Assembly: GCA_005222975.1 (NCBI GenBank)
Contig: NJBI01000048.1
Span: 1-27,028 of the forward strand
Source of the DNA: Promethearchaeota archaeon Loki_b31
Lineage (GTDB): Archaea; Asgardarchaeota; Lokiarchaeia; Sigyniarchaeales; SOKP01
Direction of reading: 5' to 3'
DNA length: 27,028 bases
Part shown: one piece after another, positions 1 through 8,582 of the stretch
How positions within the stretch are numbered: position 1 is the stretch's first letter
Layout of the letters: every line of letters begins with the position of its first letter
The notes under the pieces: model-generated
What the model saw: only the letters and a program-made list of their open reading frames with translations
Told to the model about the DNA's origin: nothing
Database searches by the model: none
Position numbers and translations under genes: made by a program

Positions 1-1573
1 TTTAGGAGGTTGTTTCCGGATTCAAAAGGCTCCTTGAACTTTTTATTGTGAAATTCCATGTTTGAATGCTGTGCCTTTGAGAGCCCTGGATTCTGTTTAA
101 AAAATTCTACGAAGCGTAGGATATCATCTTCGTGCTTTTTAATCGTACGGATTGCCGCATTCAATTTCTTGGAATGTGTGTGGTCTTCCTTGAGGTCTTT
201 AATTTGATGACCGTTAATCTCACCGGGAGGGAGCCTGCTTATCTCTCCAACCAATAGCGTCATTTCTCGATACTTTTTTAATTCAGAGTGACATGTCAAA
301 AGCGAAGCGAGTTTTTCCTTACGCTTGAGAGTTACATTTTCCGGTTGAAAAAAGATCACGTGAGAATCGTAGTAGAATTTAATGCTCTCGTCATCAATTG
401 GCTTGCGAAGTTCGAGAAAAAAGGTTTTTAACTTTTTTAAAAGCTCCTTTTTTACTCGGAGCATGCCCTTCTCAGTGAAGCGTTTTTTAGGCATGACCTT
501 AAGCATTGCATCGGAAAAATTGAATTCCGGGTCGCCAGAACCCTCTAGCTCCTTTATAACTTCTTGCAATTCCTGAAAGAACTGGTCTGGAGCGGTTACT
601 TTTAAAAGGTCCATTACTCTAAAGGTAAGTTTAGCACACTTCGAGCTCGAATCGTGGTCAGATTTAACTTTGGGCGGGTTACCTATAACTTTCAATAGTA
701 ATGAGAAATCAAGCCCGTCTTTGATAAGCTTTTGGATGGAATTGACCCAATTTCTTAATGAACGCAATTCTCGTCTTTCCGCATCGAACCGCTTCTCACG
801 ATATTTCTGAAGATCAGCTTTAATCCCATTGTTTAATAGCTGCATGACGTGAAAGAGGTCAATTTGGATGACCTCTTTTCCATACACCTGCGATATTGCT
901 CCAAGAAGAATCGGAGAGAAGTCGCAAGTTATTAGCCCAGGAGAAACGCCTAATTCTTTTAAATAGGTTAAAATCCGAACGGCATGTTCTAAGATCTCAT
1001 CTCTGACAATGTGAGTAAGTAAGTCCCGTTTTTTTGCTTGGTCAGCGATAATGAGACCACAGGCTTTTTTTTCCCAATTACATCTCTTCCGGTGGAAGTA
1101 TATGTGCCATCAATCGTGACTGTCTTAATTGATTCGGGATGTTCTAAGGTCTTTTCTCGATTTACTGATTTTAAATAATCTGTTGAATAGCGTTTTATCC
1201 AAGAATTTACCGTATCGACAGGTACCTCCACCTCGTGCGAATTTTTGAGCACGTGAGCGATCTTTTTTCCTGAGATGTTGTCTCTAAAATAACGCTCTAA
1301 TGCATAATGGATAATTGAGGGAGCATATTCTAATTTGGAGGGATAATCAAGGTGTTTTGGAGAGAACGAATGACCACAGGTTTCACATTCAAAGTAATTT
1401 ATTTTTATGCGGAGAAAACGTTTCTCCCGAGGCGCTCCAAGGTCAGGAAGCAATCGCTTATAACTCGAGCGTATCTTTAATACTAAAGAACGACATTCCG
1501 GGCATGCTCCGTCAAAATACTCTTCCACAGGAATGTCATGATAAGATGTTTTAACAACCGTCTTAAAGTTCAT
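1..1573 (-). CDS. ISL3-like DDE transposase, orfA+orfB joined by a -1 frameshift near 1064-1072; 3'-partial, about 524 aa inside the window
   Basis: Frame 0 (1573-989) has a Zn finger CPEC..CETC, an HTH-like segment and the first catalytic Asp (TVTIDGT). My translation of the -1 frame is open from 1109 to base 1: KKACGLIIADQ...LITCDFSP...IQIDLFHVMQ...QPENVT...AIRTIKKHEDDILRF...SNMEFHNKKFK, giving the second Asp, the DxFH motif and the catalytic Glu of ISL3 enzymes. Confidence 0.85.
1040..1072 (-). promoter_or_regulatory. Putative programmed -1 frameshift signal (A_AAA_AAG plus a small downstream stem TGGTC...GACCA)
   Basis: Minus strand reads GGG AAA AAA AAG CCTG TGGTC TCATTATCGCT GACCA; it lies in the 1109-989 overlap of the two open frames. 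Confidence 0.65.
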
Positions 1574-1580
1574 ATTTAAG

Positions 1581-1629
1581 AGGGTGTGTTATCGTGATAA
1601 TATTAGGGTGTGATATGCTCGTGATATCT
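1581..1629. repeat. Imperfect tandem repeat upstream of the transposase
   Basis: AGGGTGTG at 1581 and 1605; TCGTGATA at 1592 and 1619; dyad TTATC-GT-GATAA at 1589-1600. Confidence 0.55.
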
Positions 1630-1809
1630 TTCATGAGAAAAATTTTTATTTTTTCACATCTACAAAAAACTTAACATTTAATCCAAAAAAGCCATAAAAT
1701 AAAAACAATTATTTCTATAGTCTATTTATTATAACTATTTCATTTTTTAATTTAATAATTAAATTAATTTAATAATAAAATTTCATTAAAAGTCGCGGGA
1801 GAAATCTTA

Positions 1810-4689
1810 ATGGAAGAAGTTTATTATAATATGGGTTTAGAGCAAATCTATAAAAAGTTTCAGACTAATCCGAATAGTGGATTAACGAACGATGAAGCGC
1901 AAAAAAGGTTAGAGCTTTATGGCTTAAACGAAATACCAAAGGCGTCTAAAGGGTTCATCAAAATTTACCTTGCTCCGTTGTTCAACTGGTTAATTGTAAT
2001 TTACTTAATAGGCGCTCTATTTTTATTTTTGTCCTCTTTTTTTGGTGGCAAAGGTAATATGACCTTTATTTTATTAACCCTTGTGATTGTAGGTCTTAAC
2101 TGTATAGTTGCGATTATTCAACAGTATAGAGCTACGAAAAAATTGAACGCTTTAAGAGAAATGACTGCACCAACATCCACAGTTATTAGAGATAGCCAAA
2201 AGAGAGATATCCCAACAAAAGAGGTAGTAGTTGGCGATTTATTAGTATTAAAACAAGGCGATAGGATTCCTGCAGACGGAAGAGTAATTCAATCTTCCAA
2301 TTTAGAGGTTAATGAATCTAGCCTTACTGGCGAATCCGAACCTGTAAGAAAGCTTCAAGAGGGTATAGCTTTAGGAAAAGAAGATATTTCAATTGGAGAT
2401 CGTAAAAATATGACCTATTACGGAACTTTTATCGCGACTGGCAATGCTACAGCAATCGCAGTAAAGACAGGTAAGGACACTGAAATCGGAAAGATCTCGC
2501 AAGGGTTAGAAGAGGCTGGAACGAGCGAAATCCCTATTCGAGAGAAAATGAACAACTTCGGTAAATGGTTGGGAATAATCGTAGTCGGATTTTGGCTTCT
2601 TATAATATTAATTGTATGGGGGGCTACAGGTGAATTAGAATTCGTAAAAAGTTTGAATTCTGCTATGGATCTACTTCCAATTAACATCCCTCTTCTTGTT
2701 ACAATTATTTTACTTACGGGAGTTTTAGCTATGGCTCATCATGGCGTTATTGTTAGAAATTTAGCCTCAGTAGATAGTTTAGGCCGAGTAAGTGTAGTTT
2801 GCAGCGATAAAACTGGCACACTAACAAAAAATCAAATGAGTATTCCATTTATTTGGACAAATGGGGCAACTTATAAGGTTACAGGAAGTGGTTATAGCCC
2901 TGAAGGCGAAATAATATTAGTTGACAATCCAAAAAATCCTATTTATGTGAAACATATAGATGATTTTCCACAGCTTAAATTACTATTAACTTCGGGATTT
3001 TTAAACAATAATTCAGCTTTAGTAAAGAACGAGATTGAGATTTCAGGTAGAATTATTCCAAACTGGACAGTCGTTGGCTCTCCAACAGAGGGGGCCTTAA
3101 TGGTTATATTCCAAAAAGGCATGGGCGATTATTTCCTCGAAGAATTTGAATATACTAAAGAATATCCATTTGATTCGGAAGTAAAACGGATGACCAAAGT
3201 TTACAAGAAAGAAGATAAATTTTACTCCTTTACTAAAGGAGCAAGCGAAATCTTAATTCCATTATGCAATAAAGTGTTGTATAAAAGCCAAGAATTAGAT
3301 TTCGTTGATGAAATTAAAAATAAAGTAATGAAAATAGCAAATACCTATGCTGAAAGAGGATTTAGGATTTTAAGTTTATGTTATAAAAAATTAGATGTAT
3401 TTCCCCCAGAAGACGATAAAAGTAGGGAATTGTGCGAATCAGATATGATCTATATCGGTTTTGTAACGATTTTAGATCCCCCTAGAGACGGTGTAAAAGA
3501 AAGCGTCGAAGAATGTCATGCTGCTGGAGTCGATGTGGTAATGATCACCGGAGACTCACCTGCTACTGCAAAGGCAATTGCTAAGCAAATTTCTATCATT
3601 CAAAATGATGACGATATTGTAGTAGAGGGTAAAGATATAAAAAAAATTCGTTCATTTTTCGATTTTAGTAAAATTAAAGTATTTGCTAGGGTATCCCCTA
3701 AACACAAACAAGTGATTATAGAAAGATATCAAAATGCTAATAAAGTTGTCGCTATGACGGGAGATGGCGTAAATGATGCATTAGCTCTAAATATGGCAGA
3801 TGCAGGCGTAGCTATGGGTATACAAGGAACTGACGTTGCCAAAGAAGCGAGCGACATGGTAATAAGCGACGATTCTTTTACCTCAATCGTAACAGGAATA
3901 GAAGAAGGTCGGGGTATTTTTGCTCGTATTAGGGCAGTTGTTTTCTTTTACATAGCAATTAATGTATTCGAGGGCATCGTCCAATTTATTTTATCCATAA
4001 TATTAGGCTTCCCATATTTTTTAGACACTATTTTTTATTATCAATGGATCTTTCTTGCCATTACAGTACATATGTTTCCAGGTCTTATACTAACTTTCGA
4101 TACGACATCTAAAGATGTGATGAAGCAAAAACCTCACAACGAAGAAGAAATTCTTTCTAAACACACGATGATTTTATTGTTTGCTTTCGGAGCTTTTTTG
4201 GCGCTAAGCATGGTAGTAGTTTACTTTACAACCATTACTGGACTTTATCCAGTTTTTCCAGAGAATACAAATTTTGGCGATTGGGACTGGGCTTATCTTT
4301 TTTCACCTGAAACACTTCTTGATCCTTTATTAAACCCTGGCGTTTTTTTGAACGAAGTAAAAACGCTAACGATGTTAATGGTGACGATCTTCTTCTGCGA
4401 GTCATTTTTAGTGTTTCAAATAAGAAGACCGAATAAATCTTTGATAAAAAGCATAAAAGAAGATAGCACTAAATTCATGTACATATTAATTGGATTGTTA
4501 TTCGGTTTATTCCTCGTGCTAATGTATGTTCCTGGAGTTCAAATTGCCCTTGCCTCGGTGGGTTTAAACTTTATGTTTATGTATCTTACTTGGTTGGATT
4601 GGTTAGTATGCTTTTCAATTTCGCTAATCTGCATAGTATCTTTTGAATTAGTTAAATATTTCGCTCGAAAGAAGGGCATCTATTTCTAA
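1810..4689 (+). CDS. P-type ATPase, P2A/SERCA-like scaffold with a non-canonical membrane transport site
   Basis: LTGES, DKTGTLT (D333), KGASE, DPPR, MITGD, FARVSP and TGDGVND motifs, about 10 TM segments; TM4 reads LLPINIPLLVT. Confidence 0.95.
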   Translation: MEEVYYNMGLEQIYKKFQTNPNSGLTNDEAQKRLELYGLNEIPKASKGFIKIYLAPLFNWLIVIYLIGALFLFLSSFFGGKGNMTFILLTLVIVGLNCIVAIIQQYRATKKLNALREMTAPTSTVIRDSQKRDIPTKEVVVGDLLVLKQGDRIPADGRVIQSSNLEVNESSLTGESEPVRKLQEGIALGKEDISIGDRKNMTYYGTFIATGNATAIAVKTGKDTEIGKISQGLEEAGTSEIPIREKMNNFGKWLGIIVVGFWLLIILIVWGATGELEFVKSLNSAMDLLPINIPLLVTIILLTGVLAMAHHGVIVRNLASVDSLGRVSVVCSDKTGTLTKNQMSIPFIWTNGATYKVTGSGYSPEGEIILVDNPKNPIYVKHIDDFPQLKLLLTSGFLNNNSALVKNEIEISGRIIPNWTVVGSPTEGALMVIFQKGMGDYFLEEFEYTKEYPFDSEVKRMTKVYKKEDKFYSFTKGASEILIPLCNKVLYKSQELDFVDEIKNKVMKIANTYAERGFRILSLCYKKLDVFPPEDDKSRELCESDMIYIGFVTILDPPRDGVKESVEECHAAGVDVVMITGDSPATAKAIAKQISIIQNDDDIVVEGKDIKKIRSFFDFSKIKVFARVSPKHKQVIIERYQNANKVVAMTGDGVNDALALNMADAGVAMGIQGTDVAKEASDMVISDDSFTSIVTGIEEGRGIFARIRAVVFFYIAINVFEGIVQFILSIILGFPYFLDTIFYYQWIFLAITVHMFPGLILTFDTTSKDVMKQKPHNEEEILSKHTMILLFAFGAFLALSMVVVYFTTITGLYPVFPENTNFGDWDWAYLFSPETLLDPLLNPGVFLNEVKTLTMLMVTIFFCESFLVFQIRRPNKSLIKSIKEDSTKFMYILIGLLFGLFLVLMYVPGVQIALASVGLNFMFMYLTWLDWLVCFSISLICIVSFELVKYFARKKGIYF

Positions 4690-7681: not shown

Positions 7682-8455
7682 CTATTCTTTAAATCCTTGA
7701 CAGAAAGAATTCACATTTTTAGGTAATACATCGTGATTATAGCCGCCCTCTAATAAAGCATATCTCCGCCCTTCGCATAGCTTTTCAGAATATTCTTTCA
7801 TTAACTTTCCTAACTCAAAATAGTCTTCGGGATATAAAAGATGTCCCCAGTCTTCAATTCCTTGATCGAAACCAGCTGAAGCCACAAAAATATCAATATT
7901 ATCTAATTCTTCCATGTAGTTCTGAACTTCTTTAATATAACCTGTTCTTCCGCTCGAATCAGGATTAAGGATTTTAACTCGAAAGTTATCATCTCTAAAG
8001 GTTAAGATATTGATGTTACCATCACCAGTGTGTAAATCGAAATCAAGCACGAAAGCTGATTTAATTTTACCCTCAGAAAACAATTTTAACAGACTTATAC
8101 TAATGTTATTGAAGTAGCAAAAACCCCAACACGAGTCAGCAGATGCGTGATGTCCTGGAGGTCTGACAACCGCAAAGATTGGATTATGACTATAAGCTTC
8201 TTCGCCAGCTAAGATGGCACCACCAGCAGCAAGCGAAGCAAGTTCGAATAACAATGCATCGAGTTTAACATAGTTGTAATGTCTTTCAGAATGGGCTCTT
8301 AAAATATCATCCTTCGATGCGGGTTTTGGTGTTATAAATTCATATTCTTTATTACTTGACAATAAATCTATTATTCCTTCTAAGCGACCTGGTGAAGCAG
8401 CTGGGTCTAATGCGTAACTTGAATTATAATATCTTTTGTGAAATACAATCTTCAT
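7682..8455 (-). CDS. Compact histone-deacetylase-family Zn-dependent amidohydrolase
   Basis: RPPGHH, GFCYFNN, DFDLHTGDG, SAGFD and LEGGY motifs are all intact. Confidence 0.93.
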   Translation of the reverse strand: MKIVFHKRYYNSSYALDPAASPGRLEGIIDLLSSNKEYEFITPKPASKDDILRAHSERHYNYVKLDALLFELASLAAGGAILAGEEAYSHNPIFAVVRPPGHHASADSCWGFCYFNNISISLLKLFSEGKIKSAFVLDFDLHTGDGNINILTFRDDNFRVKILNPDSSGRTGYIKEVQNYMEELDNIDIFVASAGFDQGIEDWGHLLYPEDYFELGKLMKEYSEKLCEGRRYALLEGGYNHDVLPKNVNSFCQGFKE

Positions 8456-8582
8456 TTTTTTTCAATCTTAATTTTAAAACGAATTATAATTGAGATATAA
8501 TTACATTTATAAAAGCAAGTAATGATATAATATTATTTTAATTATTATCTCAAATTTCAAATGTATAAAGGAAGTTATATAA

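Follow-up and report, generated by a model that had tools for sequence, protein, structure and literature searches.

A conserved, apparently Asgard clade of P2-lineage ATPases with a rewritten transport site, represented by a P-type ATPase gene of Promethearchaeota archaeon Loki_b31

P-type ATPases are divided into families by their transport sites, and until now every new site has come with a new cargo or a changed direction of transport. Here we describe P0001, a P-type ATPase gene within a 27,028-nucleotide stretch of contig NJBI01000048.1 of Promethearchaeota archaeon Loki_b31 (assembly GCA_005222975.1; G+C 33%), referred to below as the window. The P2A Ca2+-ATPases, which include Listeria LMCA1, SPCA1/PMR1, SERCA and a pump with a PEGL motif encoded on contig C50 of the same genome, provide the best sequence match to P0001 (PDB E-value of about 1e-117). 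They share with it the domain set, the TGES loop, ten transmembrane helices (TM), the NxxE motif of TM5, a glutamate in TM8 and the top Foldseek matches. The two differ at the transport site, where P0001 has P-I-N-I-P instead of PEGLP in TM4 and QQ instead of QE in TM2, and TM6 in the clade to which P0001 belongs carries Ala, Tyr or Phe followed by His in place of N..TD.

The other described systems that bear on this locus are more distant. AHA2 and Pma1 are P3A plasma-membrane H+-ATPases. The P4 flippases (Drs2, ATP8A1/2) are marked by PISL in TM4 and DGET in the A domain, and the P5 ATPases by extra N-terminal membrane helices, with PPELP as the TM4 motif of P5A. TGES, the TM5 NxxE and the P...P spacing of TM4 are features of cation pumps. 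In the P1B-4 Co/Zn/Fe ATPases, which have eight transmembrane helices and an SPC motif in M4, a histidine in the M6 motif HEGxT helps to bind the transition metal. A 2023 review lists families P1–P6, gives PPALP as the P5 TM4 motif and expects further prokaryotic families, P6 having been named on grounds similar to those set out here (PMC10654040). The P6 pump CtpE, by which Mycobacterium takes up Ca2+, has lost the TM6 aspartate, with Ile in its place, and keeps PEGL (PMC10654040). As a prokaryotic, P2-like offshoot in which loss of this residue accompanies changed transport behaviour, it resembles the present clade and is a precedent for naming a new family (PMC10654040). CtpE is bacterial, however, and pairs PEGL with a TM6 Ile, whereas the clade has no PEGL and has a TM6 His; the two are set apart here by motif comparison.

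P0001 is paralog A, the PINIP type, of an Asgard ATPase clade. The gene and the motifs on which the comparison rests are as follows.

1810..4689, + strand: P-type ATPase gene P0001, 959 residues in a single open frame (translation, Pfam, TIGR01494, AlphaFold2 (AF2) model)
2119..2124, + strand: Q104-Q105 of TM2 (clade alignment; canonical P2, P3A and P3B pumps have Q/E-E)
2326..2337, + strand: TGES dephosphorylation loop of the A domain, residues 173–176 (motif; TGES in 116 of 120 close homologs)
2677..2691, + strand: P290-I-N-I-P294 in the unwound part of TM4 (motif and AF2 helix break)
2806..2820, + strand: DKTGT, residues 333–337, with the phosphorylated Asp333 (motif; invariant in clade alignment A1)
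3757..3777, + strand: TGDGVND hinge motif of the P domain, residues 650–656 (motif and clade alignment)
3961..3975, + strand: N718-V-F-E721-G of TM5 (NVFEG, residues 718–722), which keeps the NxxE of Ca2+ site I (clade alignment)
4051..4083, + strand: FLAITVHMFPG of TM6, residues 748–758, with the His754 codon at 4069–4071 (clade alignment)
4390..4404, + strand: FFCES of TM8, residues 861–865, with the Glu864 codon at 4399–4401 (clade alignment)

The protein matches the Pfam domains Cation_ATPase_N, E1-E2_ATPase (E = 4.7e-49), Cation_ATPase, Hydrolase and Cation_ATPase_C, and its score of 293 bits against TIGR01494 (cut-off 62.3) places it in the P-type ATPase superfamily (HAD-IC). The P-type motifs DKTGT, TGES, TGDGVND, DPPR and MITGD are all present, and the machinery of the catalytic cycle is intact. 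The AF2 model (pLDDT 81.7, pTM 0.73) predicts a SERCA-like fold in which ten membrane helices can be read from the helix list and TM4 is broken, or unwound, at residues 287–291. The 50 best Foldseek matches listed for this model are all SERCA, SPCA, Na,K-ATPase or H,K-ATPase.

The transport site departs from this canonical picture. The HMMER alignment of P0001 with the Listeria Ca2+-ATPase is ungapped through these helices and sets PINI under PEAL and AITVH under NLVND; the column equivalences were confirmed with a 68-row alignment, and residue counts were taken from 32 full-length clade members and 32 canonical P2 pumps. In the SERCA numbering of these columns, E309 is replaced by Ile, G310 by Asn, N796 by Ala, T799 by Val, D800 by His and E109 by Gln105, while N768 and E771 are unchanged and the E908 column holds Glu864. 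Ile291 sits 42 residues N-terminal of Asp333. An earlier note on this DNA, made from the letters alone, had pointed to PINIP, the 42-residue spacing, His754 of TM6, the QQ pair, N718/E721 and FFCES, and all of these lie where it had placed them.

The same replacements recur throughout the clade. Residues in the E309 column are Ile (23), Phe (3), Val (3), Trp (2) or Leu (1) and never acidic, against Glu in 31 of 32 canonical pumps. The G310 column holds Asn in 29/32 clade members (Gly in 29/32 canonical pumps), and the E109 column holds Gln in 27/32 and never Glu (Glu in 29/32), next to an invariant Gln at position 104. At the N796 column the clade has mostly Tyr or Phe, where 30 of the 32 canonical pumps have Asn. 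His occupies the D800 column in all but one of the 32 clade members; the canonical residue there is Asp (30/32), which the P3A and P3B rows also carry. Three columns retain potential ligands: N768 is Asn in 28/32 (30/32 in canonical pumps), E771 is Glu in 32/32 (30/32), and E908 is Glu in 30/32, where canonical pumps are divided between Gln (19) and Glu (12).

These features extend well beyond the near relatives of P0001. P[IL]N[IL]P stands at the matching site in each of the 120 closest database relatives (71–100% identity); the earlier note had proposed to look for PEGL among close homologs, and none retains it. An exhaustive HMMER search over 1.84 billion cluster representatives returned about 45 with the signature. 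Most rank above about 545 bits, the level at which canonical PEGLP / N..TD pumps start to appear; a few full-length signature members and several fragments rank below it. Among the 32 clade representatives the signature holds down to about 33–40% identity. The substitutions are fixed across the whole clade, far beyond chance, and mark a conserved family rather than a one-off decay. Few columns of the clade alignment are conserved as well as those of the transport site, which argues for purifying selection on the site.

Family models place P0001 on a P2 scaffold that lacks the P2A site. With Cation_ATPase_N, Cation_ATPase_C, ten TM helices, the TM5 NxxE and a SERCA-like fold, its architecture is that of a P2 pump. 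The highest-scoring NCBIfam models are PMR1-type (TIGR01522, 468 bits against a cut-off of 798), fungal IID (429 bits) and SERCA-type (TIGR01116, 427 bits against 703), all far under the equivalog cut-offs; the canonical PEGL pump on C50 scores 605 bits with TIGR01522 and 588 with TIGR01116. The residues that identify a P2A site are replaced, with PINIP for PEGL(P) and A..VH for N..TD. More distant models give 343 bits for P3A (TIGR01647, cut-off 615) and 163–228 bits for P1B. The P4 model TIGR01652 gives 110 bits for P0001, 106 for the canonical PEGL pump and 97 for the second clade paralog of the genome (cut-off 431), and the P5 model TIGR01657 gives 240, 209 and 228 bits, respectively (cut-off 618).

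Phylogenetic analysis agrees with this placement. A 49-row IQ-TREE tree (ultrafast bootstrap and SH-aLRT) comprised 24 clade members, 22 canonical P2 sequences (P2C-like ones and the PEGL pump on C50 among them) and P3A and P3B genes from named genomes; to shorten the run, the canonical set was thinned and eight clade rows and a P1B row were omitted. The tree recovers the clade as monophyletic (100/100), with a stem of 0.3 substitutions per site, and splits the clade and canonical P2 rows together from P3A+P3B (100/99). Rooting on P3 makes the clade the sister group of 21 of the 22 canonical rows, with moderate support only. Monophyly was also obtained in a quicker tree of 68 rows with a P1B root. 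Affinity to P4 and P5 was judged by the family-model scores, eukaryotic P4/P5 references being outside the trees. The clade is thus a deep offshoot of the P2 (Ca2+/Na+/K+ pump) lineage.

The clade is apparently restricted to Asgard archaea, as far as named members show. These come from Lokiarchaeota, Promethearchaeota, Helarchaeota, Hodarchaeota, Hermodarchaeota and Odinarchaeota, and the Asgard host suspected in the earlier note is borne out by the Lokiarchaeial source genome and the names of its relatives. Within the same phylum, 371 of 400 genomes have a match at E <= 1e-100, a count that includes canonical pumps, and 17 of the 33 Asgard families sampled have a best match at E <= 1e-190, which corresponds to clade level. 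Scores at clade level were found in 0/151 and 0/151 genomes of two other archaeal phyla (Thermoproteota not among them). The clade TM4 signature is likewise found in none of 80 generic P2 loci from many bacterial and archaeal phyla, retrieved with DKTGT/GDGVND patterns as controls; PE stands there in 78 of them, and PQ or PN in the other two. The only non-Asgard label in the clade is Korarchaeota, borne by member P0136 (GCA_012974725.1). An Arf/Ras/Roc small GTPase is encoded two genes downstream of this pump (L100, 8548–9129), and the label is doubtful because an Arf/Ras-family GTPase lies beside the pump, which suggests that it is outdated or that the contig was mis-binned.

Clade members often occur in two copies per genome, for the most part arranged in tandem. 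Closed single-contig genomes G135 (4.4 Mb) and G138 (6.0 Mb), from the same order as the source genome, carry them, and in G135 the two copies are not in tandem and lie about 0.55 Mb apart. Everywhere the proteins are annotated as "Ca2+-transporting ATPase", and Asgard P-ATPases are listed as putative Ca2+ and Cu pumps in a survey of Asgard transporters. A clade widespread in the archaea closest to eukaryotes bears a Ca2+-pump annotation though the Ca2+-binding residues are absent. Literature searches that covered P-type ATPases of Asgard archaea, FUPA families and the motif strings brought no account of the clade to light, which upholds the earlier suggestion of an uncharacterised subfamily. 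To that suggestion the present analysis adds the tandem pair split by an insertion sequence, the P3A comparison, the supported tree and the negative samples from other phyla.

As the earlier note had proposed, it is very probable that P0001 does not work as a standard Ca2+ pump. We think it probable that P0001 is a single-site small-cation pump, transporting neither Ca2+ nor lipid, of a deep Asgard P2 offshoot. By analogy with SERCA, Ca2+ site II would be abolished by the exchange of the gating Glu for Ile, Phe or Trp and of the TM6 Asn for Tyr, Phe or Ala; the side-chain ligands that serve site II only would be lost, with bulky hydrophobic residues in their place. The TM2 Glu, which the other pump families sampled keep and which lines the cytoplasmic entry funnel of SERCA, is Gln in the P0001 clade. 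What would be left is one site-I-like pocket formed by Asn718, Glu721, Glu864, His754 (at the site of the bridging Asp) and Asn292, a newly acquired residue of TM4. On the same analogy, four of the five site-I positions would still bear potential ligands, with His replacing the bridging Asp. One small cation would be bound from the cytoplasm in E1, occluded upon phosphorylation of Asp333 and released outside in E2P, in an ordinary E1/E2 cycle.

Among candidate cargoes we rank Mn2+, Fe2+ or Zn2+ first, tentatively and as an export substrate, because a Glu/Glu/His/Asn set is typical of sites for borderline divalent metals. The P1B-4 ATPases, whose metal-binding His lies in the equivalent core helix M6, offer a precedent for a metal cargo, although they belong to a distant family with another architecture. 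Several points weigh against the single-site reading. That the five side chains share one pocket is suggested by homology to SERCA rather than by measured distances, and instead of being a ligand, His754 could be structural or serve as a fixed counter-charge. The genome already encodes a P1B metal pump, which lessens the need for a second metal exporter, and the top-scoring family models are still those of Ca2+ pumps (the PMR1-type model foremost), though far under their cut-offs. The gene neighbourhoods, in which nothing is conserved past close relatives, give no hint of the cargo.

A proton, or a proton exchanged for a monovalent cation, ranks second and is somewhat unlikely. P0001 would then be a proton pump or an H+/monovalent-cation exchanger in which His754 and the two buried glutamates form a protonatable cluster, with a hydrophobic TM4 residue as in P3A, and whose role would be to energise the plasma membrane of Asgard cells or to regulate pH there. 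Histidine is well known as a carrier of protons. The loss of three acidic P2 positions (E109, E309 and D800 in SERCA numbering) fits a cargo of lower charge, and near-universal presence, often in two copies, points to a housekeeping ion. In prokaryotic P3A-type pumps, too, the TM4 Pro is followed by a hydrophobic residue and the N796 column holds Ala: TM4 reads PVAMP and PVAQP in two such genes (L092 and L093, both of which pass the TIGR01647 cut-off), in the same P-x-x-x-P frame as PINIP, and the N796 position is non-polar in both groups. Elsewhere the P3A pattern is the opposite of that in the clade. P3A pumps keep the TM6 Asp, carry an Arg in TM5 and no longer have the glutamates of TM5 and TM8, whereas the clade has His for the TM6 Asp, Tyr or Phe at the position of the TM5 Arg, and both glutamates. 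The P3A model score also falls well under its cut-off, and five conserved polar ligands exceed what a proton needs.

Transport of Ca2+ or Mg2+ with altered stoichiometry or direction, on the site-I residues only and in parallel to P6/CtpE, seems improbable. The top family scores come from PMR1-type and SERCA-type models, the TM5 NxxE and the TM8 Glu are retained, and CtpE is a precedent in that it imports Ca2+ without the TM6 Asp (PMC10654040). CtpE nevertheless keeps PEGL, which the clade does not (PMC10654040). Neither the gating Glu nor the bridging Asp, both of them Ca2+ ligands in SERCA, is present in the clade, and a His nitrogen is a poor ligand for Ca2+ or Mg2+. A canonical pump in the same genome, on C50, reads PEGL / NIATD, and P0001 is not the sole candidate Ca2+ pump because the genome retains this PEGL / N..TD protein.

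A large or organic cargo is very unlikely, and still less credible is a flippase- or P5-like pump for lipid, polyamine or peptide, possibly from the archaeal stem of the eukaryotic P4/P5 pumps. This idea draws on the Ile that directly follows the TM4 Pro, as in P4 PISL, on the resemblance of P-x-polar-x-P to P5A PPELP and on the Asgard host. The Ile had been taken in the earlier note as a mark of P4 flippases, a role that is ruled out because a hydrophobic residue stands there in P3A-type pumps as well; it is all that PINIP has in common with PISL. In other respects P0001 departs from P4, with TGES rather than DGET in the A domain, a second TM4 Pro and the cation-type TM5 NxxE. It departs from P5 in its PINIP motif, in starting with a P2-type Cation_ATPase_N domain and in having ten TM helices. 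The Tyr or Phe common at the N796 position in the clade would, we infer, fill the pocket rather than open it for a large cargo. No match to Cdc50 (PF03381) was found in the 92%-complete genome, in a search for which the model matched no control genome either and which thus had no positive control.

Only a slight chance can be given to the specific proposal that in this clade the archaeal stem of the large-cargo pumps now confined to eukaryotes (P5 and/or P4) has survived. Under that proposal an Asgard pump on a P2 scaffold would have swapped its gating Glu for a hydrophobic gate with a polar group one residue on (P-I-N-I-P against P-P-E-L-P of P5A), and the eukaryotic descendants would have changed so quickly that sequence scores no longer reveal the link. 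The clade shows no particular leaning towards P4 or P5, because its P4 and P5 scores match those of the canonical PEGL pump and lie far under the cut-offs, and it groups with P2 pumps against P3. A link to flippase, P4 or P5 origins is therefore not supported, and the bearing on P4/P5 origins that the earlier note had envisaged falls away; the present evidence has no bearing on how flippases arose. Equally slight is the chance that P0001 is a decayed or non-transporting protein, whether a regulatory ATPase or a gene drifting to pseudogene, as an insertion sequence 125 nucleotides upstream that parts it from its tandem partner might suggest, since the frame is open, every catalytic motif is intact, the transport-site residues are so well conserved and the upstream spacer is conserved with relatives.

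For the probable single-site small-cation pump, identification of the cargo would correct a systematic mis-annotation and add a family to the P-type tree. It would also reveal the way in which Asgard cells handle an ion whose importance is suggested by the many conserved copies.

The surroundings of the gene are those of a disrupted tandem pair. Contig C9 abuts the window contig (C10), and the following features flank P0001 on the two contigs.

C9 189..3071, − strand: paralog B (L098), 960 residues, 39% identical to P0001, with PINLP, SGES, GDGIND and TM6 GIVHSLPA
1..1684, − strand: most of an ISL3-family insertion sequence (DDE_Tnp_ISL3 match)
1685..1809, + strand: remnant of the native spacer, 125 nucleotides upstream of the P0001 gene, which aligns with the inter-ATPase spacer of L005 and L006
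4705..5307, + strand: GNAT acetyltransferase, 16 nucleotides downstream of P0001 (Pfam Acetyltransf_3)

Paralog B has SGES where P0001 has TGES, and keeps the TM6 His. A 320-residue open reading frame (ORF) lies upstream of it, an order also seen in the relatives L005 and L006. In related Lokiarchaeial genomes the signature paralogs are adjacent, the PINLP type first, and are followed by the GNAT gene and two genes for luciferase-like oxidoreductases. The source genome still has the two paralogs side by side, with the insertion sequence between them. This ISL3 element, of about 1.8 kb, lies in the inter-ATPase spacer and spans C9 positions 1 to about 128 and window positions 1–1684; its terminal inverted repeats measure about 24 bp (GGATTAAATGTTAAG...). 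C9 ends with an exact overlap of 19 nucleotides with the start of C10. The contig break falls inside the element, which caused the assembly break between the two contigs. A second ISL3 copy at C15:21244-23068 is 98% identical over 1687 bp (C15:21382-23068).

The spacer remnant probably holds the promoter and ribosome site of the P0001 gene. These 125 nucleotides are conserved with the spacer of relatives, and P0001 has probably kept its own expression signals. On the other side of the gene, synteny with the GNAT acetyltransferase is limited to the close Lokiarchaeial relatives L005, where it is represented by two ORFs (7934–8493), and L006. It is not conserved beside the distant members P0128, P0129 and P0142, and P0124 is adjoined by a different, divergently oriented GNAT gene. 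Since it is split into two ORFs in L005, the acetyltransferase probably has no functional tie with the pump.

The source genome encodes four P-type ATPases in all: P0001, its paralog on C9, the canonical pump on C50 and a heavy-metal pump on C81. The last of these, a CPC-type P1B ATPase at about 3556–5713 of C81, ends in a Cys-rich, zinc-ribbon-like tail with two CxxC pairs, which constitutes an unusual C-terminal metal-binding extension.

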